Below, piece by piece: positions 4,978 to 63,883 of a DNA stretch of 64,000 bases (position 1 is its first letter; the number at the start of each line of letters is the position of its first letter). The DNA is from Candidatus Staskawiczbacteria bacterium (GTDB lineage Bacteria; Patescibacteriota; Minisyncoccia; Minisyncoccales; Staskawiczbacteraceae), in assembly GCA_041661545.1 (NCBI GenBank), contig JBAZUH010000001.1, positions 211,877-275,876 of the forward strand, read 5' to 3'. The position numbers were made by a program, and so were the translations under genes. Under the pieces are notes generated by a model. The model worked only from the letters and a program-made list of their open reading frames with translations. It had not been told where the DNA came from and did no database searches.

Positions 4978-5006
4978 TTGACGTTATTTTATCAACATGA
5001 TATTGT
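4978..5006 (+). promoter_or_regulatory. sigma70-type promoter of GC-rich cassette 1
   Basis: TTGACG, 17 nt, TATTGT, preceded by aTGa (extended -10). Same architecture as the rnpB promoter at 53423. Confidence 0.5.
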
Positions 5007-5042
5007 TTTAATATGTAACTTGAAAATTAGCGAACCAGCACC

Positions 5043-5240
5043 ATGAAAACAACATATACCCAAAGAACGGTTAAGCTTAGTAACAGGCACCGGGGGTCCA
5101 AATATGCGCCCAAATGGTTTATCAGGAAGCTGAAGAGGCTTAAAGAAAAGGGCTGGGTGCAAATCGCTCACCGCTCGGGACGTCTTAAGAATTTCGTCTA
5201 CGTAGTTCTTCAAAGACCAAAATGTCGTAGAACTGGTTGA
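5043..5240 (+). CDS. hypothetical small basic protein (cassette 1)
   Basis: 65-aa ORF in a GC-rich segment. KLKRLKEKGW resembles RKRLEELEKLGW of the next ORF, suggesting paralogy and a possible winged-helix fold. TGA stop. Confidence 0.45.
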   Translation: MKTTYTQRTVKLSNRHRGSKYAPKWFIRKLKRLKEKGWVQIAHRSGRLKNFVYVVLQRPKCRRTG

Positions 5241-5243
5241 AAT

Positions 5244-5576
5244 ATGAAAAAAGCGAATACAGCAATTCAGAACTATATTTCTGACAGGACACTTGCCTGT
5301 GTCCGTAAGCGTCTAGAAGAGTTAGAAAAATTGGGCTGGCGCATTCACCATTATTCGATCTGGGGCCCTAAAGGACTTGTCATTGTATTCCATCGCCTAG
5401 CTACTTACTTGTTTCCTTCTGCAAAGATAGAAAGATGTGTCTGCCTTAACGACTTTCCAGAATGGCGTGACCTGATTGTTCGACTTGCAAGTCGCGGTTG
5501 GAGATTTCTGTCTTTCCAAAGTAGCTCTTCTCCCAAGGCTCCTTACAGATTTCGCCAGCTAATCGAAAAAGGCTAG
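5244..5576 (+). CDS. hypothetical protein (cassette 1)
   Basis: 110-aa ORF starting 4 nt after the previous stop, with GC-rich composition. Confidence 0.5.
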   Translation: MKKANTAIQNYISDRTLACVRKRLEELEKLGWRIHHYSIWGPKGLVIVFHRLATYLFPSAKIERCVCLNDFPEWRDLIVRLASRGWRFLSFQSSSSPKAPYRFRQLIEKG

Positions 5577-5678
5577 AACAACTGCCATGATTTGCTTTAA
5601 TTACTGGTTTTTATTCCCTCGGCTTGGAAAGAGTCACTTCATCAAACGGAAGAAAGTTGATAAGAAAGACAAGACGTC

Positions 5679-5840
5679 ATGCCCACACTTGTAACTATTG
5701 CTGTTTGGATTTTGGCCCTGATAGTCTCTTTCAATGTGTCTAGGGGCGTTAACATAGTTGTTTTTATTGTTGCTTCGATTATCACACTTGCTATTGCATG
5801 CAAGGCTGAAAAGCAATCTTCAAAAAGGACGCCTAAATAG
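5679..5840 (+). CDS. small two-TM membrane protein (cassette 1), not in ORF track
   Basis: Hand translation gives MPTLVTIAVWILALIVSFNVSRGVNIVVFIVASIITLAIACKAEKQSSKRTPK (53 aa), followed directly by a terminator. Confidence 0.45.
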   Translation: MPTLVTIAVWILALIVSFNVSRGVNIVVFIVASIITLAIACKAEKQSSKRTPK

Positions 5841-5854
5841 CGTTCTCTTTTTTT
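5827..5854 (+). terminator. intrinsic terminator of cassette 1
   Basis: ggacgc/gcgttc stem followed by tcttttttt. Confidence 0.6.
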
Positions 5855-5926
5855 GAGTGCGAAATATATTTTCATTAATCGCACGAAACCCCGCCGAAGC
5901 CTTGGCGAAGGCAGGTGCAGTAATTT
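5855..5926 (+). repeat. F element copy A (about 72-nt structured repeat)
   Basis: gagtgcgaaatatattttcattaatcgcacgaaaccccgccgaagccttggcgaaggcaggtgcagtaattt. It matches the reverse complement of 9297-9370 except for a few substitutions and one indel, and abuts the mrdA stop codon. Confidence 0.85.
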
Positions 5927-9296: not shown

Positions 9297-9370
9297 AAAT
9301 TACTGCACCCGCCTTCGCCAAGGCTTCGGCGAGGTTTCGTGCGATTAATGAAAACATATATTTCGCACTC
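9297..9370 (-). repeat. F element copy B (inverted relative to copy A)
   Basis: The reverse complement reads gagtgcgaaatatatgttttcattaatcgcacgaaacctcgccgaagccttggcgaaggcgggtgcagtaattt. Confidence 0.85.
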
Positions 9371-9398
9371 AAAAAAAATGCCCACTTGGTTATTGGGC
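9371..9398 (-). terminator. intrinsic terminator of cassette 2
   Basis: Minus strand gccca...tgggc stem followed by a T8 run, directly followed by F copy B. Confidence 0.6.
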
Positions 9399-9418
9399 GC
9401 CTTCAAAAAGAAGACCTA

Positions 9419-9679
9419 TTACTTAATTGCTTCGAGTTCTGCTTTGTATTGCTCTTGCCACGAAGCCAGAATGGATTTAGCAACAGTATCATCATCTGGG
9501 AGATAACTAACAGCTTTTCCTTTTTCCGCAACAAACTGAGTAGCCCAATCAATGAGATTGGTGGAAATTGAGACCAACACTCGAGCTGGTTCAAACTTCA
9601 GCATTCTCAGAAAGATTTTCTTGGTGCTCCGAGACTGCTTCTCTATGTCATCAATAAGCCATTGCTCAAATAGTGTCAT
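9419..9679 (-). CDS. hypothetical protein (cassette 2)
   Basis: 86-aa ORF with a 4-nt ATGA overlap with the upstream ORF. GC-rich. Confidence 0.5.
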   Translation of the reverse strand: MTLFEQWLIDDIEKQSRSTKKIFLRMLKFEPARVLVSISTNLIDWATQFVAEKGKAVSYLPDDDTVAKSILASWQEQYKAELEAIK

Positions 9680-9951
9680 TTTGGTTCCTCCCCGAGCTTT
9701 AGGCCCGCGTCTACTTCAGCGGCTTTTTGTTGCAAATACCTCATGTATTCTGCCTGCTTATCTTCTTTAGGTGCGGATCCTTGGCTAGCGGACAATTGGC
9801 TCCTGATGCCATCCATTAATCCAATACCAACTCCTATGCAAAGAAACTGGTTGGCAATATCATAGATTTTTCTGCGTTGATGTGGCTGTAATGACTGTGC
9901 GTATTCGTCTAGCTCGGTTAGTGCGGGCGTTGCTTCAAATGTAGCGCTCAT
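9676..9951 (-). CDS. hypothetical protein (cassette 2)
   Basis: 91-aa ORF with one central hydrophobic segment. Confidence 0.5.
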   Translation of the reverse strand: MSATFEATPALTELDEYAQSLQPHQRRKIYDIANQFLCIGVGIGLMDGIRSQLSASQGSAPKEDKQAEYMRYLQQKAAEVDAGLKLGEEPK

Positions 9952-9982
9952 TTTAGGTGGTCTTTCTTGATATTGGTGTGAT

Positions 9983-10636
9983 TTACTTTGTTCGAATGGC
10001 TCGAAACGCCCACTTAATGGCCTGGAAGGCCAAGAACAGGGGAATTGTTATTTGCGAGATGACCGGGTTGAACACCGGCAACATCCGTGTGTGTTTCTTG
10101 ATTGTGTCATTAGTAACTTTTGACGAATCAAAGAACATAAATTCAAACAGAGTAACTATTGGCACAAACCACAAAGAGGTCCACAGTTGGGCCTTTATGA
10201 CAACCAATGCGCCAAACAGGCTCCTAAGCTCTGGGTGGACGCGCATTCCCCACCAAAAATATGCAGCTGCTATTACTGAGATTATTTCAACTGCCCTGAT
10301 TAGCGAAAAAATAAACCTCACCTGAACTTTCTTGTTTTTGGCCAAATATTGAATCAGAACTATGCCAACAAAGACAAGGGTCATTACGCCCATTATGTAA
10401 ATCTCTGTATCTGCTATTTTGGGAGAATATACAATCAACATCATGATTACCGACGTCGCCATCAGCAACCTACCTAAAATAGAGACCAGTTTCATTCCCA
10501 GCGGATACGGAGCTTGGTCGCGCAGGTGATTTTGTTGCCACTGCCGAAGCTCTTTGACGTTGCTCCTCATGATGAAATAAGAAATCCAAAAAATTACAGA
10601 CCAAAACAATGGGTGTTCAAACACGTTGATATTCAT
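9983..10636 (-). CDS. polytopic membrane protein (cassette 2)
   Basis: 217-aa ORF with about six hydrophobic helices. GC-rich relative to its flanks. Confidence 0.6.
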   Translation of the reverse strand: MNINVFEHPLFWSVIFWISYFIMRSNVKELRQWQQNHLRDQAPYPLGMKLVSILGRLLMATSVIMMLIVYSPKIADTEIYIMGVMTLVFVGIVLIQYLAKNKKVQVRFIFSLIRAVEIISVIAAAYFWWGMRVHPELRSLFGALVVIKAQLWTSLWFVPIVTLFEFMFFDSSKVTNDTIKKHTRMLPVFNPVISQITIPLFLAFQAIKWAFRAIRTK

Positions 10637-10683
10637 AATTTTATTTCAAGGTTCGGGTTGCTTCTATTCGTAGAAGTCTTTAT

Positions 10684-10712
10684 AATATATGATATTTTTA
10701 CCTAATTGTCAA
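10684..10712 (-). promoter_or_regulatory. promoter of cassette 2
   Basis: Minus strand TTGACA, 17 nt, TATATT. The leader contains a cttcta/tagaag hairpin. Confidence 0.5.
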
Positions 10713-14662: not shown

Positions 14663-14688
14663 AAAAAAAGAAGCGAGCTGTTGCTCGC
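14663..14688 (-). terminator. intrinsic terminator of cassette 3
   Basis: gcgagc/gctcgc stem followed by a T7 run on the minus strand. Confidence 0.6.
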
Positions 14689-14703
14689 ATGATTAGCAAT
14701 TCG

Positions 14704-15159
14704 CTATTCTACTTTGGCAAAAACGAATTCGTAATACGGTTGCTCACGGTCTCTTGGCCTGACATCGTAAGCCGAAAGGCACATGCCCTCGCGCTCGTGA
14801 TTGTAAAGAACAAACATCCACAGATTGCCCTCGGAGTCTATCGTTGGCACACGTATGTATCCTCCTGTTGGTTGATCGTTATATTCAAGCCTTAATTTCA
14901 AGATGCATTCAATTGAGCAACAACGCAAACCGAAATTTGCAGCTACTTCACAAACCTTGTCGCCAGAAATCTTGGAGCAACCCCAACGTCCCAAATTATT
15001 TCGCACCAACTCATCGTGTACTACTCCAGATGGAACGAAAAATTTTTCTACAGCTTTCAATCCAGCAGGCTGCACTCTCATTCCCGCCAATTGAATCGCA
15101 TTGATTAATCCCTGCGTATTGAAAGTATCATTAAAAATTGTCTTCCATGGTTGGCTCAT
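14704..15159 (-). CDS. hypothetical protein (cassette 3)
   Basis: 151-aa ORF with higher GC than its flanks. No motif recognised. Confidence 0.55.
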   Translation of the reverse strand: MSQPWKTIFNDTFNTQGLINAIQLAGMRVQPAGLKAVEKFFVPSGVVHDELVRNNLGRWGCSKISGDKVCEVAANFGLRCCSIECILKLRLEYNDQPTGGYIRVPTIDSEGNLWMFVLYNHEREGMCLSAYDVRPRDREQPYYEFVFAKVE

Positions 15160-15205
15160 ATTTTTAGATTGTTAATAAGAAGACCATTCTTCTTATGCTG
15201 TTTAA

Positions 15206-15234
15206 ACATTAACTTTAAATACATTTTTTGTCAA
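15206..15234 (-). promoter_or_regulatory. promoter of cassette 3
   Basis: Minus strand TTGACA, 17 nt, TAATGT. The leader has a 9-bp hairpin, ataagaaga/tcttcttat. Confidence 0.5.
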
Positions 15235-17015: not shown

Positions 17016-17044
17016 TTGACAAGCCTTTTCTAATATGATATAAT
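17016..17044 (+). promoter_or_regulatory. promoter of cassette 4a
   Basis: TTGACA, 17 nt, TATAAT with an aTGa extended -10. This is a near-consensus promoter. Confidence 0.6.
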
Positions 17045-17212
17045 ATATCTAGAGTATGAAGCCAAGTACTCTTGCAAGATAAAAGGATTGTTTCGTGTCT
17101 TTGCGGGCACATCGCCTTTGCGGGCGAATAAACAATCTGGGTACAGAGCCCTATCTTGTACTTGAACGGCACATTGACACAACGACAACCGCCCCAATGG
17201 GGCACCAAACAA

Positions 17213-17962
17213 ATGACAAAGATAGTGACTGCAGCGTCTCCCCAGAGGGAGCAACTGACGGACAGCCAAGCCAATAGTCTCGCCCTCGGAGTCATCGGAT
17301 ATCACTTCACCACGGCGCTAATCGCCTGGCTGAAAAATCCGAAAATCGCTGACTTCCGCGACGACGCGGAGTCCTGTTTCTTGAAAGTCGAGAAACGGGC
17401 AAAGGCATGGGGCTGGTTGGCCTTCTGGGTCGGCCTCACCATCGGGTTCTTAGGCATCGCAGTATGCGAAGGCATCACCCGTGGTTTTGTCGAAGCCTTC
17501 TTCCACGGATGGTTGATGCAGGCGTCGGCGATAATCGGCGTGCTAACGCTGATTATCGCCTTCTTCTACGGATTTGGCTACGAGCTCGGCTCGAATCGTC
17601 GGCCGGGTGACACAACCCGAATGGTAGCCAAGATGTGGAAACCTTGGCGGAAGAAAATCGTTTCCTCGGGGGTACTTTCGGACTTCGCCTCTACGCTCAA
17701 ATGGAGGTACAAGGATGCCGAAACCGGATCTATTCTCCTGAGGCAGATCGCGAGTTACTCCTTCGGTGGCAGCGAGCTGGAGATAGTTCTCAAATCGACC
17801 CTCGCCAACCTTGCTGACGAAGCCGTCAAAAACTTCCAGGACGAGGTGCTTGATGGCAGCAAACGTGGCCAGCAACGTCACCGTCAACAGTTCGGCCAGA
17901 TTGACAAGATCGGGCAAGAGCTCGGTTTTGAAAAACTAGACTGGAAACGGCTCGACTCCTAA
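17213..17962 (+). CDS. membrane protein (cassette 4a)
   Basis: The ORF read from ATG 17213 begins MTKIVTAASPQ. It has 3-4 hydrophobic helices and is very GC-rich. Confidence 0.55.
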   Translation: MTKIVTAASPQREQLTDSQANSLALGVIGYHFTTALIAWLKNPKIADFRDDAESCFLKVEKRAKAWGWLAFWVGLTIGFLGIAVCEGITRGFVEAFFHGWLMQASAIIGVLTLIIAFFYGFGYELGSNRRPGDTTRMVAKMWKPWRKKIVSSGVLSDFASTLKWRYKDAETGSILLRQIASYSFGGSELEIVLKSTLANLADEAVKNFQDEVLDGSKRGQQRHRQQFGQIDKIGQELGFEKLDWKRLDS

Positions 17963-18050
17963 CCGAGCAGATAGGGTGCATATCATCTGATACCACCGAG
18001 TAATATCGGGCAGTGATTTGCATCAAAACAAAGAAACTAACAACAACGAA

Positions 18051-18085
18051 AGCGCGTGTGGCTTGGTAAACCCACGCGCTCTTTT
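18051..18085 (+). terminator. terminator of cassette 4a
   Basis: agcgcgtgtgg...cccacgcgct stem followed by cttttaat. Confidence 0.5.
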
Positions 18086-18108
18086 AATACATTTAGCATT
18101 ATTCACAG

Positions 18109-18137
18109 TTGACACAAAGCTTTTTATATAGTATAAA
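18109..18137 (+). promoter_or_regulatory. promoter of cassette 4b
   Basis: TTGACA, 17 nt, TATAAA. Confidence 0.5.
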
Positions 18138-18195
18138 GATTATGGAACATTTACAAGATAAATGAGTTTGGCGAGTGCCAACACGAAACTTCCAG

Positions 18196-18549
18196 ATGTT
18201 CCAAACGTCCAAACAACATATAAACGCCATGTGCAAAATCGCCATCCAGGAACTCCCCCTCGTTTCCCACAGCCCGCGGTGTGCCTGTGGGAAAACGGCC
18301 ATCCAAAAGGCCGTAATCAAAAAACCCACGTTTGTAGTTTCCGTAAACTGCTGCGGTGACGTGGCCTGCGTGCAAGCGGCCCAAAAAAGCGTCGGTGAGA
18401 AGCATCGAGCCCGCCTCGAGGACATCCAACGAGTTCGTCAAGCCAAAGCGGCCCAAAAAGCCGCCGCGCGCGCGGCGAAGAAGGAGAGGTCGTTGCGCGG
18501 CTCCAAAGAGACCTTCGTCGGTAGGGACTTCGATCCCCTGAAGGTCTAA
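18196..18549 (+). CDS. hypothetical Cys-containing protein with a Lys/Ala-rich tail (cassette 4b); frame uncertain
   Basis: This is the longest plus-strand frame between the promoter and terminator. Several overlapping ORFs exist on both strands in this GC-rich stretch. Confidence 0.35.
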   Translation: MFQTSKQHINAMCKIAIQELPLVSHSPRCACGKTAIQKAVIKKPTFVVSVNCCGDVACVQAAQKSVGEKHRARLEDIQRVRQAKAAQKAAARAAKKERSLRGSKETFVGRDFDPLKV

Positions 18550-18575
18550 CCGCCCTCGCCACACATTTCCCCAAA

Positions 18576-18608
18576 GCTCGCATCCCCCCAGATGCGAGCA
18601 ATTTTTTT
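18576..18608 (+). terminator. terminator of cassette 4b
   Basis: gctcgcatc/gatgcgagc stem followed by a T7 run. Confidence 0.7.
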
Positions 18609-18616
18609 GCATAGGC

Positions 18617-18680
18617 ATCCTCCCAAATAAAAGTTTCCGACACGAAAACTTTTACCATTTGGGGGGATATTTTGAGGGAT
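18617..18680 (-). repeat. E element copy 3 (structured repeat with an 11-nt insertion)
   Basis: The reverse complement reads atccctcaaaa[tatccccccaa]atggtaaaagttttcgtgtcggaaacttttatttgggaggat. It lies 8 nt after the terminator T-run. Confidence 0.75.
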
Positions 18681-18687
18681 GCATAAA

Positions 18688-18990
18688 CTAGCTAACACCT
18701 AATATCTGCCTAATCCTATCTGCCTCCTCGTCAATTATGGGGCCAAAATATTCACCATTATGGGCATGAGAGTTGCCACCATAAACTGGTGCTTTTTGAT
18801 CTAAGTGCAAACTAAAAGTAAAATCTGTTCCCGCTTGGCGGGTGTAAGCATGAAACCGTGGAAAACTATTGCCACTTAATTTTCTAACCAAATTATACTC
18901 ACCATTTGGCTTTGTATCTATAATAACGTAGCCAAGTTTTCTGGCTACATTAGAAATACTTTCTTTTACATTTTTTATAATAAAATCCAT
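18688..18990 (-). CDS. hypothetical protein
   Basis: AT-rich ORF with start taken at MDFIIKNVKE. No family recognised. Confidence 0.55.
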   Translation of the reverse strand: MDFIIKNVKESISNVARKLGYVIIDTKPNGEYNLVRKLSGNSFPRFHAYTRQAGTDFTFSLHLDQKAPVYGGNSHAHNGEYFGPIIDEEADRIRQILGVS

Positions 18991-22511: not shown

Positions 22512-22558
22512 AAAAAAAGGCCACGTTTCGCTAGGCTGTTGCTTTTGCGAAACGTGGC
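22512..22558 (-). terminator. terminator of cassette 5
   Basis: 12-bp perfect stem gccacgtttcgc/gcgaaacgtggc followed by a T7 run on the minus strand. Confidence 0.7.
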
Positions 22559-22583
22559 ATGATAGGCTCACTGAGCCGTGTTC

Positions 22584-23507
22584 TTACTTGCCCTTCTTCG
22601 GCGGACGGGGCTTCTTCCGTCGCGCGGTGAGCTTGGTGGCGGGCGCAGGCGCTTCGGGTGAAGCGGGCGCTTCGGCTACCAACTGCCATTCAGGACTCAG
22701 TCCATCCGGAGTGGGAACTTCAGCGACCGGAGGCTGCTCAGCCGACTCGGAAGTCGGCGGAGCGGGTTGCTCGGGAACAGGCTCGGTGGGCGGCTGAGCG
22801 GTGGGCTCGGGCGTAGGTGCTTGCGGTTCCCAACGAGAGGCTTCGGGAAAAGGCCCTGGGAAAAGACCTCCGCTTCCAAACAGAACTTCGAATGGGTCGG
22901 AACGGCGGGGTTCCCCAAAGAACTCCGGACGGAGACGACCACGCGCATCCATAAATCCGGGCGGATATGGGGATGGCGGTGGACCATACATGTCGCCAAA
23001 AAGGCTGTCGAGGCCCGCCAAAGCGCCGAGATTCATGGCGCCAAGGTCTATGACCGTGATCTCCGGCTCAATGGCCACGATGTGCCACCACTTCTTCACG
23101 GCCAGTGTCCGTTTCTCAAAACTTGCCATGGCGCACTGCTGGGGGAAGACTTCCTTGATCCCCCTCCACAAGAGACGGTTAAGGATAGTCAATTCCTCTT
23201 GCACGATGTCTAGTTCGGCGACCGATCGGCTCATGCGCTTTTTGATGTCGGCACCATTGGCCAGAACCATGGAAAATTCGTCCATCAAACGCATCTGGCA
23301 ATAGCCCCCTATGCTTTCCACTTCTCGCATGCAGATCGCTCTAAGCGTTGCCACCGCCTTCAAATGGTTCGGCAAAATGCCGATGAAGGTATCACCTTCC
23401 TGGATAAGCCCTTGGGGCTCTTCATACTCGGCGGCAGGCATGGTCTCAATCCTGTCAAGCAGAGCTCGCAGAAATCTCGTCGTTACGCTTCCCTTTGGTT
23501 GTTTCAT
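22584..23507 (-). CDS. hypothetical protein with a Pro/Ala-rich C-terminal tail (cassette 5)
   Basis: Start taken at MKQPKGS (ATG). One sample stretch is 45 of 60 nt GC. The C-terminus is low complexity (PEPTAQPPTEPVPEQPAPP) and ends in KKPRPPKKGK. Confidence 0.55.
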   Translation of the reverse strand: MKQPKGSVTTRFLRALLDRIETMPAAEYEEPQGLIQEGDTFIGILPNHLKAVATLRAICMREVESIGGYCQMRLMDEFSMVLANGADIKKRMSRSVAELDIVQEELTILNRLLWRGIKEVFPQQCAMASFEKRTLAVKKWWHIVAIEPEITVIDLGAMNLGALAGLDSLFGDMYGPPPSPYPPGFMDARGRLRPEFFGEPRRSDPFEVLFGSGGLFPGPFPEASRWEPQAPTPEPTAQPPTEPVPEQPAPPTSESAEQPPVAEVPTPDGLSPEWQLVAEAPASPEAPAPATKLTARRKKPRPPKKGK

Positions 23508-23598
23508 GGCTTCAATTCGGTTGTTCGTGGGGTTGGTTTGGTTTTTCAGTTTCCGCAAACGCGCGGAAACTAAAAGTCACCTTTTAGGTGCTACAAAT

Positions 23599-23627
23599 AC
23601 CTTATCACACAAAAAATATAGTGTCAA
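23599..23627 (-). promoter_or_regulatory. promoter of cassette 5
   Basis: Minus strand TTGACA, 17 nt, TAAGGT. The leader has cacct/aggtg and gtttccgc/gcggaaac hairpins. Confidence 0.5.
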
Positions 23628-31573: not shown

Positions 31574-31647
31574 ATTATTATATGTTAATTATATTATATA
31601 TTTTTACTCTACGCCTAAAAATTAAATTTGGCAAGTAATGTCTATTT

Positions 31648-31700
31648 ATCCCTCAAAAATGGTAGCACTTTTCGTGTCGAAAAGCGCTATTTTTGGGGAT
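31648..31700 (+). repeat. E element copy 1 (53 nt)
   Basis: atccctcaaaaatggtagcacttttcgtgtcgaaaagcgctatttttggggat, 8 nt from terminator D1. Confidence 0.8.
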
Positions 31701-31708
31701 TTTCGTTT

Positions 31709-31746
31709 AAAAAAAGAGCCCAAGGTTGCAGGTGCAACAAGGGGCA
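31709..31746 (-). terminator. terminator D1 (38-bp unit identical to D2)
   Basis: The minus strand reads tgccccttgttgcacctgcaaccttgggctcttttttt, starting 8 nt after the rSAM stop. Confidence 0.75.
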
Positions 31747-31754
31747 CAGAAATA

Positions 31755-33128
31755 TTATATTTGTTTATAAACGTCCCAAATTAACCAATTAAGCACTCCC
31801 AGCGAGTGTTTGCAAAACTTATCGTCAATAGCCCAAATTGTTCCATGCTTAAGAAATGCACTGTAGGCACACCCCCCTCCGCATAAACCAAGTGATGGAC
31901 AATTGAAGCATTGAGGCATTGTAAGCGGGGACCGCCTGCCCCATTCTTGAATTAGAAGATGGTCTGAAAAAATAAAATCTTTAGAAACTTTTCCAAAAAA
32001 GGAATTGCCGCAGCCTACTCCTTCGTGGCAAATGCCCAAAGACCCGTTTGGCGAGATAGCAAGTTGTGCGCCAGTAGCACGACAATCAAAAGGGTGAAGA
32101 ACGCCCTTGCCAATTGCTCTAACTTTGCGCATTATTCTATCTTCGTATAGTCCAATTTCTCGTGCTTTTTCAAAATATTCTAACATTCGCGTTGTAGCAT
32201 GTTCGGTGTAAGAAGCATCAACCATGCGCTCTGCGGTATCTAGCATTAAGTTAAAGTTAACCGTCTGAAATTGATATTGCTGGTGCAAAGTAAGCAGTTC
32301 GTCTAGCTTATCAACGTTGTGCTCGTCAATTGTTGCCGAGATGTTGATGTCTTTACGACCCGCACAATGCAAAAGCTCAATTCCTCTAGTTATGTCGCAG
32401 AAAGTTCCCTTTCCGCCACAATAAACCCTTTTCTGATCGTTAGTTTCTTGAAGTCCATCAAGCGAAACGCAGATTGTGATTTCTGGATGTTGCGCTAAAT
32501 AGCCAGCAATTTCTTCTGTGATCTTTGTTCCGTTGGTAATAAGCAATAAACCGATTTTGAACTCGGCCAGCTCCTTGCCATAATTGTCGTGGATGTATCC
32601 GACGATTTGTTTTATTAACGGGAAAGCAAGCAAGGGCTCACCACCGTAAAAAACGATCGTCTTGTGAAACTTTGTTGGCTTGATATTGGCGAAATACATG
32701 TCAACAGCCTCTTTTGCTATATCCCAGGTCATCGCCTTACTGCCTTTGCATTGTTCTGGCATGTTGCCGTTTATCATGCAATAATGGCACGCCAGATTAC
32801 ACATATCCGTAAGTAGTATAAAAATTGTCTCAAGCGTTGGCTGATAAACATACGTTTTTTGTTTTTCACGCAAAACGCAGTCATCGTCATATTCAACAGG
32901 TACAACCAATTGTTGCTCAATTAATTCAGCAACGATATCATCGACATCATCACCAAACTGACGTAAGTGTTCAAGTGTTGTACCTAATCGCAACTCATTT
33001 AGCAAATCAGCATAGCGCTCCTCTAAAAATAGAAGCGACAAACATAGCGAGTGAAAAACTGCATACGCACCATTTTTTTGTATTACGTGCGTCCATTTAG
33101 ATAATCGAATTGCCTTGTTATCATTCAT
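31755..33128 (-). CDS. radical SAM/SPASM peptide maturase with an N-terminal RRE (PqqD-like) domain
   Basis: 457-aa ORF with the CNLACHYC (CxxxCxxC) cluster and a C-terminal SPASM Cys pattern (CFNCPSLGLCGGGCAYS...CKH). The N-terminal 90 aa or so look like a peptide-recognition element. Confidence 0.8.
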   Translation of the reverse strand: MNDNKAIRLSKWTHVIQKNGAYAVFHSLCLSLLFLEERYADLLNELRLGTTLEHLRQFGDDVDDIVAELIEQQLVVPVEYDDDCVLREKQKTYVYQPTLETIFILLTDMCNLACHYCMINGNMPEQCKGSKAMTWDIAKEAVDMYFANIKPTKFHKTIVFYGGEPLLAFPLIKQIVGYIHDNYGKELAEFKIGLLLITNGTKITEEIAGYLAQHPEITICVSLDGLQETNDQKRVYCGGKGTFCDITRGIELLHCAGRKDINISATIDEHNVDKLDELLTLHQQYQFQTVNFNLMLDTAERMVDASYTEHATTRMLEYFEKAREIGLYEDRIMRKVRAIGKGVLHPFDCRATGAQLAISPNGSLGICHEGVGCGNSFFGKVSKDFIFSDHLLIQEWGRRSPLTMPQCFNCPSLGLCGGGCAYSAFLKHGTIWAIDDKFCKHSLGVLNWLIWDVYKQI

Positions 33129-33174
33129 GATTCTATTTCTTTCTTGGTTGAGGTTTAAGACAGCTAATAAATTG

Positions 33175-33211
33175 GTGGGGTGGCGCTATCCATTGGACCG
33201 CGCCACCCCAC
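33175..33211 (-). terminator. 12-bp GC hairpin between precursor and maturase (putative attenuator)
   Basis: gtggggtggcgc/gcgccaccccac stem 20 nt after the precursor stop, followed by only a weak U-tract. Confidence 0.5.
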
Positions 33212-33231
33212 GAAGAAAGTCGTGCGACCGA

Positions 33232-33333
33232 TTAGTGGCACGAACACCCGCAGGCGCAATTCTGCGCCAACAGCACCGAGGTGCTGATGTTTCCGGCAAC
33301 ACGATCCAAGTGATGTTTAGTTACCTTCTTCAT
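33232..33333 (-). CDS. 33-aa Cys-rich RiPP precursor candidate (not in ORF track)
   Basis: Hand translation gives MKKVTKHHLDRVAGNISTSVLLAQNCACGCSCH*. A GAAAGGAG Shine-Dalgarno lies 5 nt upstream of the ATG, and the ORF sits directly upstream of the rSAM gene. Confidence 0.65.
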   Translation of the reverse strand: MKKVTKHHLDRVAGNISTSVLLAQNCACGCSCH

Positions 33334-33547: not shown

Positions 33548-33555
33548 TGATGGAA

Positions 33556-40888: not shown

Positions 40889-40938
40889 AAAAAAAAGACC
40901 CGCCAGCAACGCTTCTGCGTAGCTAATGCGGGCTGGCG
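40889..40938 (-). terminator. terminator of cassette 8
   Basis: cgccagc...gctggcg stem followed by a T8 run on the minus strand. Confidence 0.6.
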
Positions 40939-40965
40939 CGCTCATTGCAAGCGCCATGACATGAT

Positions 40966-41421
40966 TCAGCAATAGTGCTGACCTTCAAGAATGCGATACC
41001 CCCGACCCTCCTCAAAACGGACCGCCGCCAGCATTCTCTTTGCGTAAAGAGCAAACTCCTCATCACACAGTTCACCTGAATTATGCAATTGCCGGTAATG
41101 GTTCTTCGCCGCACCATCGTCGGCAGCAAGAAATCTACGAATTTTCTGTATCTGTTTTCCTCCTTCGCGCTGCCAGATGAAAAGTATATACCAATGTGGC
41201 CTTTGATCCACGCGTTCACATCTTAGCTTTGCGCGTTTATAGATATAACGCTTGATTATTTTATTGTTTCGCTTTAAAGTCGCGTGCTTTGGCTTCTTTT
41301 GCGAGATATAAAGTTTGAACAGATTCCTCGCTGCCCTATCTGACGAGCATTGAATCGTATGATAAAAAGAACAGCCATCGCGACGGCTACGATGTATACC
41401 ACTTATAATGTAGTGTTTCAT
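40966..41421 (-). CDS. two-domain small basic protein (type1-type2 fusion, cassette 8)
   Basis: 151-aa ORF. The N-terminal half is paralogous to 41455..41712 and the C-terminal half to 41943..42185 (HWYxLFxW...FLAxxDGAAK...FALYAxR...EGRGY...C). Confidence 0.55.
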   Translation of the reverse strand: MKHYIISGIHRSRRDGCSFYHTIQCSSDRAARNLFKLYISQKKPKHATLKRNNKIIKRYIYKRAKLRCERVDQRPHWYILFIWQREGGKQIQKIRRFLAADDGAAKNHYRQLHNSGELCDEEFALYAKRMLAAVRFEEGRGYRILEGQHYC

Positions 41422-41454
41422 AATAATTACCCTCTCTTTAGAATTGCAAGCGCC

Positions 41455-41712
41455 CTAAAGGGGGACACAACTCGCCATACTTCTTATCTCAGCATCTTCT
41501 TCTCGTCGGCGTTGTCTTTCTTTTCTGCTGACGTAATTCCTAACTCTCCTATCATCTCGCCATGCCGTAACAAACGCCGGCCTATCAAGGCGGATGAAAG
41601 ATCTCAAGTATCTCAACGCTAATTCATCGGATTTAAATTCAATTTCATCGCAAATATCACAGTTGTTTTGATGGGCACCATGTCGGCCCCTTATCATGTA
41701 TTGGCGTTTCAT
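41455..41712 (-). CDS. small basic protein, type 1 (cassette 8)
   Basis: 85-aa ORF with AAGGAG 13 nt upstream. The N-terminus MKRQYMIRGRHG aligns with MKHYIISGIHR of the fusion protein. Confidence 0.5.
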   Translation of the reverse strand: MKRQYMIRGRHGAHQNNCDICDEIEFKSDELALRYLRSFIRLDRPAFVTAWRDDRRVRNYVSRKERQRRREEDAEIRSMASCVPL

Positions 41713-41787
41713 AATTGTTCTTCGCTCCTTGTTTTGTAAAGGTTCTGATTGATGTTTTGGGCAACTCTTATGAGCATTGCCGATTTA

Positions 41788-41816
41788 TTCTTACCACAAG
41801 CTATTTTCAAAGTCAA
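41788..41816 (-). promoter_or_regulatory. duplicated promoter unit, copy 1 (cassette 8)
   Basis: Minus strand TTGACT, 17 nt, TAAGAA. The surrounding ~35 nt are nearly identical to 42311-42350. Confidence 0.45.
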
Positions 41817-41942
41817 AAAGCTTAACTAACATATCTCTGTAAAGCTAGTTCACATTTCAAGCGATAGCGTAAAATATGAACCTATATATTTATGGGAGAT
41901 TTTGTAGAAAAAAAGAGACGCGAACTTTCGTAAGCGCCATAT

Positions 41943-42185
41943 TCAACAACCATAGACACCATCCCAGATGAGATACCCGCGCCCCTCCTTAAATTTGGTT
42001 ACTGGCAACCGTCTGCGTGCATAGAGAGCAAAATCCTGACCAGGCACTAAACCATTCTTCTGCAACCGCCGACAATAGCGTTTCGCTGCACCATCATTGA
42101 CGGCAAGAAATTTACGAATTATCTCCACCCGTTTTCTTTTAATCCAATGCCAGGTGAACAGTGCATACCAGTGTCTTCTTTTCAT
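41943..42185 (-). CDS. small basic protein, type 2 (cassette 8)
   Basis: Start taken at MKRRHWYALFTW (80 aa). Confidence 0.5.
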   Translation of the reverse strand: MKRRHWYALFTWHWIKRKRVEIIRKFLAVNDGAAKRYCRRLQKNGLVPGQDFALYARRRLPVTKFKEGRGYLIWDGVYGC

Positions 42186-42316
42186 TTTTGTAAAGGTTCT
42201 GGTTGCAACTCCCGCCCCCGGCTCTAACGGCATTGCAAGACTGACCTCACACCTTAGTTCCACCATTTTTCAATGGTTATTGGTGAGAGGGATACTCTCA
42301 CGAGAGTTGCAATTTA

Positions 42317-42345
42317 TTATTACCACAAGCTATTTTCAAAGTCAA
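42317..42345 (-). promoter_or_regulatory. duplicated promoter unit, copy 2 (cassette 8)
   Basis: Minus strand TTGACT, 17 nt, TAATAA. Confidence 0.45.
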
Positions 42346-61125: not shown

Positions 61126-61223
61126 AAAATATAATTCTAATCTACGAATTATCCAAATTCTACGAATACAACAAATTTAATTCGTGGCATTCGAATGATT
61201 AGGATGACATTCGGATTATATTG

Positions 61224-62990
61224 CTAACTTTTAAATTTTACTTTTCTTAAAAATGCGGGGATTTCCCACTCCTTTTCTTGGGCTATTCTCTTTTTTTCCT
61301 GAAGTTCTTCTGCTTCTTTAATTTCTAATCCACTTCTTCTTATTGCCTGCCTGCTGTTAGGCACGACCTGCCTACTGACAGTTAAGCTTTTTTTGGTTAA
61401 TACCGCGCGTTCGTTAGAAATAGTTTCTACTATCTCTAATTTATTTTTTTCTAAAATTGGCTTAGCTAAAATTGGTTTTTTAAAAACCTTTATTTTCGTC
61501 TTAGGCTTAGATATAGGCAATTTTTTAGCTTTAATTATTGCTGGCGCCTCAACCTTAATTGGCTCTACTATTTGTTTTACCTGAACTGGCAAAATTGGCA
61601 AATCTTTTTTAAGAACAGCATCTGCCTCTTCTTGGACTTGCGACTCGGGAGAGGCCCCAGTCATTAAAATAGTAGTTTTTATTTTATTTTTCAATTTAGT
61701 ATTTTTAGAAATTCCAAAAATAATTTTGGCTTTAGAATTTAAATCTGAGATATGACTACTAATTTTTTCTACCTGAAACATTGAAAGCGCTTCTCCTCCA
61801 GCGATATTAAACAAAATCTTTTCTGTTTTAAATGTATTATTTTGTAATAATGGATTTTTAAAAATATTTTCGCAAATTTTTTCTACACTATCTTTGCCCG
61901 AAGCCTCAATAGTATTTAAAAATGCCGAATTACCCCTACCTCTTAAAATTGTTCTTAAATCAGCAAAGTCTATGTTTATTACTCCGGGACTATAAATTAA
62001 ATCTATTAAACTTTCTAAAGATTCTATTAAGCTTTTATTAACCGTTGAAAAAGCATTTGTTATTGGCGTTGACTCATCAATAATTTTAAAAATTTTCTCG
62101 TTAGGAATTACCAAAGAAACATTTAATGATTTACGCAAAATTTTTAACGCATTTTGTGCTATGCGTTGCTTATTTTTGCCCTCAAATTTAAAAGGCATTG
62201 TAAATATTCCAAAAGTAATTCCCCCAAAGTTTTTGGCTGCTTCAGCAAAAACTTGCGTAGCTCCAGACCCCAGCCCTCCGCCTAAAGATGCTACAAAAAT
62301 TATAATATCTTGATCTTTAAATAAACCGCTTATTTTTTCTTTTGATGCTTCGGCCGCTTGTTTAGCTAAATCTACATTTACTCCAGTTCCTAAGCCGTGA
62401 GTTAAATCTTCTCCAAACCAAAAATACTTCATTCCAGATCTCTTTTTTAAAGCTCTAATATCTGTATCTGCAATAACAAAAGTAGCTTTTTCTAAAGACC
62501 TACCTATCTCTGAAACAATAGAACCTCCTCCACCACCCACTCCAATAACCTTAATTTTTGCTTTAAACAAAGACTCTGCTGCAAACTCACCCTCTGGCTT
62601 GGTTTGGGCGCGCCCTGAACGTGGTCTAAGGGTTTTTTTAATAATAGCTTTCTTTACTTTTTTGATAACTAATTTCTTAGCTGGGTTTTTAGTAATCTTT
62701 TTTGTTATTTTTTTGATAATTTTCTTCACTACTTTCTTAACTGGTTTTTTTGACGTAACTTTTTTTATAATCTTTTTGGGCAATTTCTTTATTATCTTTA
62801 CAGGTTTTTTAATCTGCTTTTTTATAACAACCTTCTTTACTGTTTTTTTTATTTTTTTTGCGGGTTTCTGAATTATTTTCTTAACCAAAATCTTGCCCTT
62901 TTTTATTGGCTTAGTTTTTTTAGCTGGTTGAGAATTTTTTTTCTTTAATTTCTTTACCAGCTTTTTTATTATTTTCTTTTTCTTTGGCAT
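61224..62990 (-). CDS. ftsZ: cell division protein FtsZ with a ~140-aa Lys-rich N-terminal extension
   Basis: Start taken at MPKKKK. The core has GVGGGGGS and GLGSGAT motifs, and the C-terminal peptide is IPAFLRK. A TTG start just before the core cannot be excluded. Confidence 0.85.
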   Translation of the reverse strand: MPKKKKIIKKLVKKLKKKNSQPAKKTKPIKKGKILVKKIIQKPAKKIKKTVKKVVIKKQIKKPVKIIKKLPKKIIKKVTSKKPVKKVVKKIIKKITKKITKNPAKKLVIKKVKKAIIKKTLRPRSGRAQTKPEGEFAAESLFKAKIKVIGVGGGGGSIVSEIGRSLEKATFVIADTDIRALKKRSGMKYFWFGEDLTHGLGTGVNVDLAKQAAEASKEKISGLFKDQDIIIFVASLGGGLGSGATQVFAEAAKNFGGITFGIFTMPFKFEGKNKQRIAQNALKILRKSLNVSLVIPNEKIFKIIDESTPITNAFSTVNKSLIESLESLIDLIYSPGVINIDFADLRTILRGRGNSAFLNTIEASGKDSVEKICENIFKNPLLQNNTFKTEKILFNIAGGEALSMFQVEKISSHISDLNSKAKIIFGISKNTKLKNKIKTTILMTGASPESQVQEEADAVLKKDLPILPVQVKQIVEPIKVEAPAIIKAKKLPISKPKTKIKVFKKPILAKPILEKNKLEIVETISNERAVLTKKSLTVSRQVVPNSRQAIRRSGLEIKEAEELQEKKRIAQEKEWEIPAFLRKVKFKS

Positions 62991-63040
62991 TATATTATAT
63001 GTTAACCGCTTACAAAATAAAATCAAGTCTTACCATATGC

Positions 63041-63093
63041 ATCCCTCAAAAATGGTAGCAATTTGTGTGTCACAAATCGCTATTTTTGGGGAT
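63041..63093 (+). repeat. E element copy 2 (53 nt)
   Basis: atccctcaaaaatggtagcaatttgtgtgtcacaaatcgctatttttggggat, 8 nt from the cassette-9 terminator. Confidence 0.8.
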
Positions 63094-63101
63094 TTTCATT
63101 T

Positions 63102-63129
63102 AAAAAAAAGCTACGATGTCACACGTAGC
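63102..63129 (-). terminator. terminator of cassette 9
   Basis: gctacg/cgtagc stem followed by a T8 run on the minus strand. Confidence 0.65.
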
Positions 63130-63169
63130 GAAGTCTTTGTCGCACAATGCGTCAAAGACCCATAAAATC

Positions 63170-63883
63170 TCAAGCCAGAAGCTTGGGCCAGTTTTCACCT
63201 TTGGGTTCCAAGGCTTCAGAACCCTGCGGACAATATGGACAATCTTCAGGCTCCCAACTGTCCACCTGTTTGGCAATAAATGGTACGACTAAGCTTCCAT
63301 CGTTCGTCCTAAAATTGAGAACTGGGGGGCGATACACAAACACCCCAATCTGTCGAGCATAGCAGACACCATTATTTGTTGCCTTGTCAATTGCCACACG
63401 GCTAGCGATAGCACTATCAAAAGTGGTGATTAACTCTTCAACCTGCAAAAGCACCGCGCCTTCTGACAATGGCACGTCATGCTTAAACTTCATCTTTTTG
63501 CCTTTGGGATCCTCTGGATCCTTTTCCAACACAAGCGTTGGCACGCCAAGCAAACGACCAATATCACCGGTTAAGAGAATCGATGACTGTGGCGATCCGA
63601 AGACTGCATCAACGTGTGCTAATCCAGCTCGAAGGAGGCGCTTAACAATACAAGCGGCAATAATCTCGCGAAGATTGCCATGCATCAGCAAAGCCTTGCA
63701 TAGGAAAAATGCGTTACTGTGACGCCCGGAGTGAAGTTTCGCATGCGGTTTTATTGGGTCACCTGAGTAAACCCAACCTGCTTGCAAAAGTCCAAACCAC
63801 TCCAACACATTTTCCGGTGTCGGCAAAAATAACCCCCATTTCATCGAAAGGTTTTTCAGACCTTCTCTGGTTAATTCTTTCAT
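63170..63883 (-). CDS. phosphoribosyltransferase-like protein (type I PRTase fold, divergent) in cassette 9
   Basis: 237-aa GC-rich ORF. VLLQVEELITTFDSA resembles the PRPP-binding loop (hydrophobic strand, two acidic residues, then TTG-like). The C-terminus has CPYCP. Confidence 0.5.
   Translation of the reverse strand: MKELTREGLKNLSMKWGLFLPTPENVLEWFGLLQAGWVYSGDPIKPHAKLHSGRHSNAFFLCKALLMHGNLREIIAACIVKRLLRAGLAHVDAVFGSPQSSILLTGDIGRLLGVPTLVLEKDPEDPKGKKMKFKHDVPLSEGAVLLQVEELITTFDSAIASRVAIDKATNNGVCYARQIGVFVYRPPVLNFRTNDGSLVVPFIAKQVDSWEPEDCPYCPQGSEALEPKGENWPKLLA

Follow-up and report, generated by a model that had tools for sequence, protein, structure and literature searches.

Organization of the window and composition of its GC-rich segments

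The DNA analysed here is a stretch of 64,000 nucleotides (nt) of a Candidatus Staskawiczbacteria genome (Patescibacteriota; assembly GCA_041661545.1, contig JBAZUH010000001.1, positions 211,877 to 275,876), which is called the window throughout. Between its conserved operons and RNA genes, scattered across 59 kb, lie small gene units of 0.5-2.6 kb that are richer in guanine plus cytosine (GC) than their surroundings. An earlier note, made from the letters of the sequence, had listed ten segments of this kind, and the names c1 to c10 used here follow its order. On balance we regard these segments as accessory gene units of mixed age and origin, which sit in gene-exchange hot spots between core operons and are most likely exchanged by recombination.

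Rfam and ARAGORN placed the 23S (10975-14009), 5S and 16S rRNA genes and four tRNA genes in the window, all on the minus strand. The proteins of the units carry locus tags WC711_011xx and upward and all belong to one contig of 737,971 bp of this metagenome-assembled genome; in the GTDB species set, too, the closest ychF loci belong to Staskawiczbacteria. Loci and contigs of the relatives that were compared are given L-numbers (L002, L165 and so on), and L001, L172 and L173 are Logan contigs.

The GC content of the whole window is 35.9%, and that of the host DNA is 32.4% once the RNA genes and the units are masked (mean 0.326 and standard deviation 0.036 in 500-nt windows of the masked host). 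Against this background the segments show values of 0.413 (c1), 0.420 (c2), 0.406 (c3), 0.517 (c4), 0.526 (c5), 0.559 (c6), 0.354 (c7), 0.421 (c8), 0.434 (c9) and 0.467 (c10). The description of all ten as far richer in GC than their surroundings therefore holds for nine, which at 0.41-0.56 have the atypical base composition that is one of the marks of genomic islands, but not for 29767-30130 (0.354). The counts made by hand in the note (45 of 60 nt GC at 22621-22680 and 19 of 60 at 61-120) are exact. A blind maximal-segment scan found nine of the ten listed segments again, almost to the base, and also picked the rRNA and tRNA genes, an RNA without any open reading frame (ORF) at 53473-53828, a few palindromic repeats and the GC-richer parts of two host ORFs. 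At the third codon position (GC3) the ORFs of the units reach 0.39-0.67 vs about 0.15-0.31 in host genes, and GC1 and GC2 are raised too. Nine segments are thus distinct in GC and GC3, but the GC-normalised dinucleotide signature is atypical in c4, c6, c8b and c9 only, the others being borderline or not atypical.

Segment c7 was dropped as a unit. Besides its low GC content its ORF has a host-like GC3 of 0.25 and it is absent from the segmentation; its dinucleotide signature is not atypical, and near it only an adjoining palindrome stands out.

Architecture of the units

A typical unit opens with a near-consensus sigma-70 promoter and a short leader, which often has a hairpin at its start; between one and three ORFs follow, and an intrinsic terminator closes the unit (Table 1). 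The strict form of the promoter, TTGACA-N17-TAnnnT, is present eight times in the window compared with 0.97 +/- 0.95 expected, and none of 100 shuffles reached eight. Copies are found at c2 (10712), c3 (15234), c4 (17016) and c6 (23627), three further ones head the 23S gene, the 16S gene and the ORF-less RNA at 53.4 kb, and the remaining units have slightly weaker variants. The TTGACA-type promoter which the note had ascribed to most units, in the style of the rRNA and rnpB genes, does head most of them and is shared with the rRNA genes, but the label rnpB is unsupported: the RNA so named, an ORF-less transcript of about 370 nt (53455-53830, plus strand) with a GC content of 0.50, the promoter TTGACA-N17-TAATAT, a terminator and a fold z of -2.8, matched no Rfam family, even in a 500-nt search.

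Hairpins were read at the 5' end of c2, c3, c6 and both c9 units, and an intrinsic terminator was found, by reading of the sequence and by terminator scans, at each unit 3' end that lies inside the window. On the frequent 5' hairpins, on the terminators and on the intergenic position of the units between core genes the note was right. In c2, c3 and c6 the DNA is AT-rich and host-like in the promoter and at the start of the leader, and the GC-richness is confined to the body of the unit. The leaders and 3' untranslated regions (UTRs) of c4 and c6, together with the pyrF leader of the relative L165, have a GC content of 0.45-0.51 vs 0.28 for host intergenic DNA. Several modules are shared within the window: the terminator of c8a is 100% identical to that of c8b (31709-31746), the promoter block at 42312-42348 in c9 is 97% identical to that at 41783-41819, and the repeats E81 and D8 are both multi-copy.

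Among the individual units, c3 lies between an mscS-like gene and the 23S promoter. The leader of c4 is GC-rich and 167 nt long, and the listed ORF that overlaps the c4 gene has a GC3 of 0.67. The frame of the c5 gene is a choice, because the opposite strand also has long ORFs. The protein of the first c9 unit matches the product of the 151-codon ORF in the second unit over the C-terminal half of the latter, with 47% identity, and the two genes are paralogs.

Table 1. Positions of the GC-rich units, their genes and the boundary repeats in the window (aa, amino acids; REP, repetitive extragenic palindrome)
Feature	Position	Strand	Remarks
c1	4978..5846	+	promoter TTGACG-N17-TATTGT 4978-5006; terminator 5826-5853; GC 0.41-0.43
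c1 ORFs	5043-5240, 5244-5576, 5679-5840	+	three small ORFs, the last hydrophobic
E81 copy 1	5848..5926	+	directly after c1 terminator; hairpin and REP-like GC-rich core CCGCCGAAGCCTTGGCGAAGGCAGG
E81 copy 2	9297..9377	minus	directly after c2 terminator; 95% identical to copy 1 over 81 nt
c2	9380..10712	minus	promoter TTGACA-N17-TATATT 10712-10684; 5' hairpin; terminator about 9405-9378; GC 0.42-0.43
c2 ORFs	10636-9983, 9951-9676, 9679-9419	minus	first 217 aa, membrane; last two overlap at start/stop codons
c3	14663..15234	minus	promoter TTGACA-N17-TAATGT 15234-15206; 5' hairpin; terminator 14688-14663; GC 0.41-0.43
c3 ORF	15159-14704	minus	151 aa, Cys-rich
c4	17016..18087	+	perfect consensus promoter TTGACA-N17-TATAAT; terminator about 18050-18087; GC 0.52-0.53
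c4 ORF	17213-17962	+	249 aa; hydrophobic stretches resembling two membrane segments
c5	18109..18607	+	promoter TTGACA-N17-TATAAA; terminator 18576-18607; GC 0.53-0.56
c5 ORF	18196-18549	+	117 aa, Cys-rich, basic tail; frame picked by promoter/terminator orientation
D8	18608..18690	+	degenerate third copy with duplicated 3' arm; directly after c5 terminator; fold z -6.8
c6	22512..23627	minus	promoter TTGACA-N17-TAAGGT 23627-23599; 5' hairpin; terminator about 22556-22512; GC 0.56-0.57
c6 ORF	23507-22584	minus	307 aa: N-terminal domain, Pro/Ala-rich tail, basic C-terminus
c7 ORF	30069-29767	minus	100 aa; listed segment 29767-30130, host-like composition
D8	31643..31715	minus	overlaps and follows c8b terminator end, upstream of SPFH gene; fold z -7.0
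c8b	31709..33494	minus	peptide cluster (see text); promoter TTGACA-N16-TAAGAT; terminator 31746-31709
c8b ORFs	33332-33231, 33128-31755	minus	precursor MKKVTKHHLDRVAGNISTSVLLAQNCACGCSCH; radical SAM/SPASM maturase
c8a	33510..34340	minus	promoter TTTACA-N16-TAGGAT; terminator 33547-33510; GC 0.43
c8a ORFs	34258-34049, 34027-33758, 33738-33556	minus	69 aa; 89 aa; 60 aa, hydrophobic
c9 second unit	40889..41816	minus	duplicated promoter; terminators about 40970-40889; upstream of rpmE; GC of c9 0.43-0.44
c9 second-unit ORFs	41712-41455, 41421-40966	minus	85 aa; 151 aa
c9 first unit	41905..42345	minus	promoter TTGACT-N18-AATAAT; 5' hairpin; terminator about 41935-41905; divergent from prfA
c9 first-unit ORF	42266-41943	minus	107 aa, or 81 aa from internal ATG
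D8	63036..63108	minus	between pyrE terminator and ftsZ promoter
c10	63110..64000	minus	pyrE-like gene 63883-63170; terminator about 63129-63110
upstream ORF in c10	64000-63921	minus	3' end, probably pyrF; runs off the window

Integrity of the assembly

One alternative would be an artefact of assembly or binning, by which foreign GC-rich pieces were misjoined into an AT-rich contig. The genome is metagenome-assembled, and contigs of relatives often stop near such units. However, host DNA is found on both sides of each unit within one 738-kb contig, and the GC-rich pyrE and c6 arrangements described below recur in assemblies from other samples. Moreover, three Logan contigs, which come from an independent assembly of run SRR18595301, match the window at 100%: L173 corresponds to 6206-10802 and contains both c2 junctions and the E81 repeat, with the junctions of E81 copy 2; L172 corresponds to 16589-19082 and contains the two outer junctions of the c4 and c5 pair; and L001 corresponds to 22198-24585 with both c6 junctions. 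Because six junctions were reproduced at 100% by an independent assembler, a chimeric assembly is very unlikely. It was rejected on this evidence, and we give an artefact of assembly or binning practically no weight.

Gene content of the inter-operon slots in relatives

Loci around ychF were taken from species-representative genomes and from metagenomes. The backbone greA-(mscL)-ychF-X-rluA-mscS is common to about 18 relatives, and it goes on to 23S, 5S and mreC where the contigs extend that far. Between these conserved genes the content was found to vary in the slots greA/ychF, ychF/X, X/rluA, rluA/mscS, mscS/23S and 5S/mreC (the last one compared in two relatives only), with gaps from 3 bp to 5.5 kb.

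The X/rluA slot measures 1.7 kb in the window and holds c4 plus c5. In L002 and L090 only 8 bp separate the two genes; the slot has 66-119 bp in two other relatives and 0.36-1.24 kb in eleven, which fill it with unrelated small genes, several of them GC-rich. The note had suggested looking at the same sites in related genomes, and the outcome at this one is an empty site in two relatives and filled sites in eleven others. The ychF/X slot is shorter than 130 bp in eleven loci and measures 0.5-2.1 kb in five, and the greA/ychF slot ranges from 111 bp to 5.5 kb.

Many of the fills in relatives exceed the local core genes in GC content, with 0.47 vs 0.36 in L002, 0.49 vs 0.37 in L091, 0.41 vs 0.32 in L083, and 0.53 and 0.50 vs 0.36 in L092. 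AT-rich fills exist too, for example a hicAB-like pair common to L084 and L123. The fill of 5.5 kb in L092 (GC 0.53) contains fucose isomerase-like and ureidoglycolate lyase-like genes with a GC3 of 0.76-0.79. Each of its gene junctions that was read has its own terminator and TTGACA promoter, the same architecture as that of the units in the window; moreover a terminator module of 73 nt is common to two junctions and a 5' leader of 66 nt to two. When the ORFs in the slots were clustered, eleven small families resulted, two of which sit in different slots in different genomes. Even in the best relatives the core genes reach no more than about 70-80% identity at the nucleotide level, and filled and empty sites cannot be aligned at this level because the relatives are too diverged.

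Long-resident GC-rich genes

The c6 gene belongs to a family of five members (window, L002, L003, L082 and L092), which are 24-30% identical to each other. In all four relatives, whose ychF is 72-83% identical to the copy in the window, the member is the last gene before ychF; c6 occupies the same site, but three extra AT-rich genes intervene before ychF. Every member is GC-rich (0.46-0.58 vs 0.36-0.42 in the core).

The gene of c10 resembles pyrE. NCBIfam pyrE models match it at 9e-12, TIGR01367 scores 45 bits vs a cut-off of 150, and no Pfam match was obtained at E < 0.1. An exhaustive search gave 646 relatives, and homologs with 38-61% identity directly follow a Pfam OMPdecase gene (pyrF) in L167-L171. 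Of the ORF upstream in the window the last 25 residues are visible; it is probably pyrF, as judged from the resemblance of its C-terminal motif and from synteny. Two sister lineages, of which one is annotated as Staskawiczbacteria, contain the best relatives of the pyrE product (61% and 58% identical). In both the gene order is pyrF-pyrE-ftsZ-galU-trxB-eno-gpm, and that of the window is the same from pyrE on, except for two extra genes between eno and trxB. The pyrE identities are 58%, 58% and 72%, vs 59-77% for ftsZ, galU, trxB, eno and gpm, so that the divergence of pyrE is similar to that of the genes around it, which fits vertical descent.

In L165 and L167 pyrF and pyrE have a GC content of 0.59-0.62 and a GC3 of 0.67-0.81, between flanks of 0.34-0.40; in the window the values for pyrE are 0.47 and 0.45. 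The GC3 of pyrE in three lineages (0.45, 0.68 and 0.71) exceeds that of the host, about 0.2-0.4, by 0.25 to 0.35, and this contrast ends at the unit boundary, the adjoining ftsZ being at host GC. At four-fold degenerate sites the identity between window and relatives is 0.19-0.31, compared with 0.25 for random sequences, in only 50-70 sites per gene pair. As these sites are near saturation, neutral amelioration should have erased the excess. In more distant Patescibacteria pyrFE is found in other contexts, at host GC3 in L170 and 5-10 points above it in L169 and L171.

Because they are found in the same position and are GC-rich in sister species, pyrE and the c6 family are not recent imports. 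Syntenic orthologs with the same high GC in relatives, which the note itself had named as evidence that would speak against its idea of acquisition, are thus at hand for these two units. As far as gene order and composition tell, pyrE (with the likely pyrF) and the c6 family are long-term residents, and GC-richness would mark membership of a flexible gene pool rather than recent arrival. The high GC may have persisted through replacement of the genes time and again, through biased conversion or through RNA-level selection. If the lasting excess of pyrE and c6 is real, these genes lend themselves to the study of forces by which AT-biased mutation is counteracted in bacteria, and atypical composition could not be read as "recent transfer" in these genomes.

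Two explanations of the GC content have to be weighed at this point. According to the first, all units are recent acquisitions from GC-richer donors outside the lineage, each imported with its promoter and terminator and still unameliorated. The GC1, GC2 and GC3 of the units do resemble those of normal genes of genomes with 41-58% GC, the proteins that were looked up all form singleton clusters of this contig, L002 and L090 have an empty c4/c5 slot, and the L092 slot holds obviously foreign metabolic genes with a GC3 of 0.76-0.79. It is nevertheless hard to reconcile with this that pyrE and the c6 family are syntenic and GC-rich in sister species and that c2, c3 and c6 have a host-like AT-rich promoter and early leader. 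The close radical-SAM homologs with a taxon name, described below, all come from Patescibacteria and not from outside phyla, and no donor-like close homolog was found for c6. Recent import of all units is therefore unlikely.

According to the second, the GC excess is actively maintained, either by GC-biased gene conversion, limited to units that recombine often by way of the flanking modules they have in common, or by selection at the RNA level for long-lived transcripts, with their 5' hairpin, GC-rich body and one or two hairpins at the 3' end. The GC3 excess of pyrE in three lineages in spite of random-level four-fold identity, its halt at the unit edge with a host-like ftsZ, the raised GC content (0.45-0.51 vs 0.28) of the untranslated parts of c4 and c6 and of the L165 pyrF leader, the modules common to the units, which are capable of recombination, and the folding of c4, far better than that of shuffled sequences, are all in its favour. 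However, pyrFE is at host GC3 in the distant L170, which argues against a universal selection for GC-rich pyrFE, most units fold like ordinary mRNAs, and the estimate of saturation comes from only 50-70 sites per gene pair. The effects of GC-biased conversion known in bacteria are small, which also counts against this explanation. Maintenance of the GC content is thus possible but doubtful.

An extension of the same idea, to which we would give rather low odds, is a cassette system of the whole Staskawiczbacteria clade, in which GC-rich units shuttle between slots by means of shared modules and their GC is actively maintained. If this were true, vertically inherited members such as pyrFE would stay 20 points richer in GC than the surrounding genome.

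In L165 (246-555) and L168 (372-647), of the sister lineages, a conserved GC-rich leader of about 280 nt is present between a TTGACA promoter and pyrF. The two sequences have conserved blocks in common, and 12 predicted pairs are kept through changes on both sides. No Rfam family matched it. A role as cis-regulatory RNA of the pyrimidine genes is possible.

Proteins encoded by the units

The note had taken the units to encode only unrecognisable proteins. This is not so for c10, with its pyrE-like gene, nor for c8b, which encodes a radical S-adenosylmethionine (SAM)/SPASM maturase and a Cys-rich precursor. The maturase matches Pfam Radical_SAM at 3.4e-16 and aligns over its full length to many NCBIfam radical SAM/SPASM models, of which the FibroRumin maturase is the best (2.7e-74). 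The precursor gene is placed directly upstream and its product ends in ...NCACGCSCH. This arrangement is like that of radical SAM/SPASM clusters for ribosomally synthesised and post-translationally modified peptides (RiPPs) of the ranthipeptide, sactipeptide and FibroRumin type. Unlike these, the c8b maturase scores below every NCBIfam equivalog cut-off, and the window lacks the partner gene of about 215 aa that is found after the maturase in L162-L164.

Homologs of the maturase are numerous (1866 at E <= 1e-10, the best 79% identical), and all those with a taxon name belong to Patescibacteria. In three Patescibacteria genomes they are found in three different contexts, with a GC content equal to the local 0.40-0.45. 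The homologs in L162 and L164 are preceded by genes for near-identical precursors, and that in L163 by a gene for a related one. Unit c8b is thus drawn from a wider Patescibacteria pool, and its GC content fits relatives with 40-45% GC. The moderately GC-rich units (0.41-0.47) in general fit exchange within Patescibacteria, since many such genomes have 38-45% GC, and c8b gives direct support to this. For the strongly GC-rich set (c4-c6, pyrFE of the sister lineages and the L092 fill) no source was identified.

The remaining units (c1-c6, c8a and c9) are orphans. No Pfam match at the curated cut-off was obtained for them, only sub-threshold ones, and their proteins had no significant match in PHROGs, PADLOC or NCBIfam. 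PHROGs gave a clear match for the radical-SAM gene only (E 1.5e-38, generic radical-SAM families) and a marginal one (E 0.005) for one other ORF. Nothing was found when c4 and c6 were compared with the INPHARED phages by tblastn, nor were there matches for c3, c4 and c6 in IMG/VR. A phage origin is therefore unsupported by these scans, in collections which are likely to hold few phages of Patescibacteria.

In a cluster look-up among about 15 billion proteins, which left out five ORFs and in which the exact c5 protein was absent from the collection, the proteins of the units formed singleton clusters known from this contig only, among them the product of 5244-5576 in c1; the c6 cluster was shared only with a shorter gene call of the same contig. 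A word-indexed search with the N-terminal domain of c6 returned only itself, and a profile of the c6 family gave only chance-level matches (E >= 0.03) among PDB sequences. AlphaFold2 without an alignment reached a predicted local distance difference test (pLDDT) score of 38-39 for the c6 N-terminal domain and c3, the c3 model (39) being unusable.

We also considered whether some units, above all c4 and c5, are genes of structured non-coding RNAs, the long ORFs being a by-product of high GC. The c4 transcript has a mean minimum free energy (MFE) z of -2.0, below that of the rRNAs (-1.0 to -1.3) and above that of the 53.4-kb RNA (-2.8), and its promoter is 80% identical over 35 nt to the promoter of the latter; c5 has long ORFs on both strands, and neither has a protein homolog. 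Most other units fold like ordinary mRNAs in sliding windows compared with dinucleotide shuffles. However, an ORF of 249 codons at 54% GC has a chance of about 3e-5 per frame by our own estimate, and c4 shows the periodicity of coding sequences (GC3 > GC1 > GC2) as well as membrane-like hydrophobic stretches. The regions of the units had no match to Rfam at the gathering score or at E <= 1, either in the whole-window search or in one restricted to these regions. Furthermore, other units are clearly coding, as seen from the overlapping start and stop codons in c2, the paralogs in c9, the protein-level family of c6 and the recognisable enzymes, and ORFs of 150-300 codons are very unlikely to arise by chance at the GC of the units, as estimated by us from base composition. 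An RNA nature of such units is consequently highly improbable.

Repeats at the boundaries of the units

Two families of hairpin repeats, E81 and D8, mark unit boundaries (Table 1). The two E81 copies are mutually inverted and bracket the mreC-mreD-mrdA operon. The D8 copies at 31643-31715 and 63036-63108 are 88-90% identical and the third one is degenerate. The D8 fold (z -5.6 to -7.0) is a hairpin with about 23 bp, a GACAC loop and an ACC bulge that is conserved. Five of the 12 pairs in its inner stem show compensatory changes, and 95.7% of the cells in the three copies are paired, vs 29-48% in slid controls. With three D8 and two E81 copies these are multi-copy imperfect intergenic palindromes of conserved structure, as in REP-type elements. 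In the pyrE/ftsZ spacer of L167 D8 is missing, though the sequence of the ftsZ promoter is otherwise conserved, and for this reason D8 at pyrE looks like a later REP-type insertion. Searches for D8, E81, D1, D3 and D18 in the loci L002-L081 of relatives gave only chance-level matches.

A family of REP-like GC-rich hairpins at 24549-24626, 24872-24949 and 25239-25316 separates small AT-rich accessory genes. It shares the E81 core (5892-5915 and 9311-9334), has a fold z of -6.6, and is in part translated inside listed ORFs as ...LPRRSLGVG...

As the note had stated, no integrase or transposase was seen: none appeared in Pfam scans of 50 ORFs of the window, which do not comprise every ORF, and the ORFs scanned likewise included no transposase of the REP-associated tyrosine type (RAYT). 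It is conceivable that the units form an undescribed family of mobile cassettes whose D8 and E81 hairpins are recombination sites for a trans-acting enzyme encoded elsewhere. All three D8 and both E81 copies directly follow the terminators of GC-rich units, D8 has compensatory changes in five inner-stem pairs over three copies and is missing in the L167 spacer, and gene families change slots between genomes. On the other hand, a repeat is present at only five of about eleven units, the E81 core is also found three times among the AT-rich accessory genes at 24.5-25.3 kb, and neither repeat was found in the loci of relatives searched. Neither attC-like core sites nor a recombinase were found in the window, and the pyrE that carries D8 fits vertical descent. 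We therefore hold such a family to be quite improbable.

A third palindrome, D18 (TCCCGCC...GGCGGGA), is GC-rich and present three times, at 29700-29732, 49044-49076 and 57785-57817, one copy being intergenic, one in the 803-aa ORF 48263-50674 and one in enolase. The enolase copy coincides with an in-frame insertion of 13-14 residues, which is missing in the L165 and L167 orthologs and resembles Rickettsia palindromic elements.

Comparison with known systems and probable route of exchange

Gene transfer and genomic islands have been reported in general terms for Patescibacteria (PMC12455944). In the full-text literature we found no account of GC-rich mini-cassettes or of persistent GC-rich orthologs.

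Several known systems resemble the units. Hot-spot islets are small gene sets of variable content between core genes, without mobility genes of their own, and their flux is attributed to recombination in the flanking core. Like these, the units have variable content between the same core genes, empty sites, patchy families of mostly uncharacterised proteins and no integrase. Unlike them, they are very small (0.5-2.6 kb), each with a near-consensus promoter and a terminator; their GC content exceeds that of the host, while acquired DNA is as a rule richer in AT; and at least two of them are long-term syntenic and still GC-rich.

The cassettes of integrons and of clusters of attC sites lacking integron-integrases (CALINs) are likewise short, mostly with one unknown ORF, a 3' imperfect palindrome and no mobility gene inside. 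However, those cassettes are promoterless, arrayed by intI/attI and terminated by attC sites with RYYYAAC/GTTRRRY cores, and the units are dispersed over 59 kb with promoters of their own. A regular-expression search of the window for attC-like cores (RYYYAAC/GTTRRRY) gave six chance pairs, all of them more than 200 nt away from the nearest unit 3' end, and the Pfam scans of the 50 ORFs contained no IntI-type integrase domain. With classical genomic islands the units share the atypical base composition, but they measure 0.5-2.6 kb and not at least 10 kb, no integrase or bracketing direct repeats were found, and only c8 is near a tRNA gene (tRNA-Ala). We group the units with hot-spot islets, because they do not behave as integron cassettes or classical islands and agree with islets in the comparison of genomes.

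The repeats have parallels of their own. Like REPs, bacterial interspersed mosaic elements (BIMEs) and Rickettsia palindromic elements, D8, E81/D1 and D18 form imperfect palindromes in several copies, which are placed between genes or follow terminators; the stem covariation of D8 is a further likeness to REP/BIME, and the in-frame position of D18 inside enolase one to the Rickettsia elements. They differ from REP/BIME in their low copy numbers, in the position of all D8 and both E81 copies after terminators of GC-rich units, and in that no RAYT was seen in the window. Propagated ("mobile") promoter and terminator modules beside unrelated genes are an established concept. The near-identical promoter/leader blocks before two unrelated genes of L092, the terminator blocks after two others, the identical terminator of c8a and c8b and the duplicated promoter that heads the paralogous c9 units are all of this type, with the difference that here the modules bracket compositionally foreign genes and may also serve as anchors of recombination.

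According to the interpretation that we favour, accessory units in hot spots between operons, the units occupy slots between conserved operons that act as hot spots of gene flux, and the slots in the pyrFE-ftsZ-galU-trxB-eno backbone of two sister lineages are counted among these positions. Gain, loss and exchange would run through DNA uptake and recombination, the most likely route because no recombinase is encoded alongside. Recombination would take place in the core genes on either side or in the short modules (promoter, terminator and hairpin) that units of one genome have in common.

Some observations weigh against this interpretation. The AT-rich fills in relatives mean that GC-richness is not universal in the pool, and import followed by neutral amelioration fails to explain the persistent GC excess of pyrE. 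A recombinase may be encoded outside the 64-kb window, no donor lineage was identified for c1-c6 or c9, and the mechanism of insertion is one that we infer, the relatives being too diverged for an alignment of filled with empty sites.

The overall proposal of the note, a dispersed pool of acquired and promoter-equipped genes, stands in so far as the units are scattered, have their own promoters and terminators, are compositionally foreign, include no integrase and occupy slots that are empty in some relatives. It does not extend to pyrE and c6, which are long resident, nor to c7, which is not distinct, and for the orphans no donor was found.

The genomes of Patescibacteria are tiny, and little is understood of the ways in which new functions are gained and retained in them. 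The comparison shows that in one clade gene flux concentrates in a few inter-operon slots, where acquired genes would run as stand-alone units with strong promoters and without visible mobile-element machinery.

Other features

The region 20233-31573 is an accessory region at host GC which is absent at the corresponding place in L002 and L003. It encodes PD-(D/E)XK nuclease, RhuM/Fic, ASCH, helix-turn-helix (HTH) and SPFH proteins, as well as a fusion of LexA(S24) with a C5 cytosine methyltransferase (27172-28752). A repeat of 52 nt (30182-30233 and 30777-30828, 85% identical), CA-rich on the coding (minus) strand, closely precedes the terminators of the HTH and SPFH genes, inside their 3' UTRs.

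Another repeat, of 111 nt, is present at 19016-19126 and 57024-57134 in copies that are 95% identical. It has terminal inverted repeats of 14 nt (GGCAGTCAATTTTC) and is like a miniature inverted-repeat transposable element (MITE); one copy is found between ychF and gene X and the other between eno and gpm.

Close to its 3' end the 16S gene (35948-38257, minus strand) seems to be split by an insert of about 870 nt, which contains an ORF for a LAGLIDADG endonuclease (36135-36587) with its own promoter. The Rfam match of the 16S gene ends at 36861 and the canonical 3' terminus is at about 35990-35948. A tRNA gene at 35485-35555 (minus strand; Rfam 58 bits) has an abnormal anticodon loop according to ARAGORN, which reported it as 'tRNA-???'. 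Finally, the 23S promoter (14633) is followed by an AT-rich leader of about 600 nt (14009-14640, minus strand), which separates it from the mature 23S and is 70-74% identical at the nucleotide level in L082, L087 and L092, unlike the adjoining intergenic DNA.

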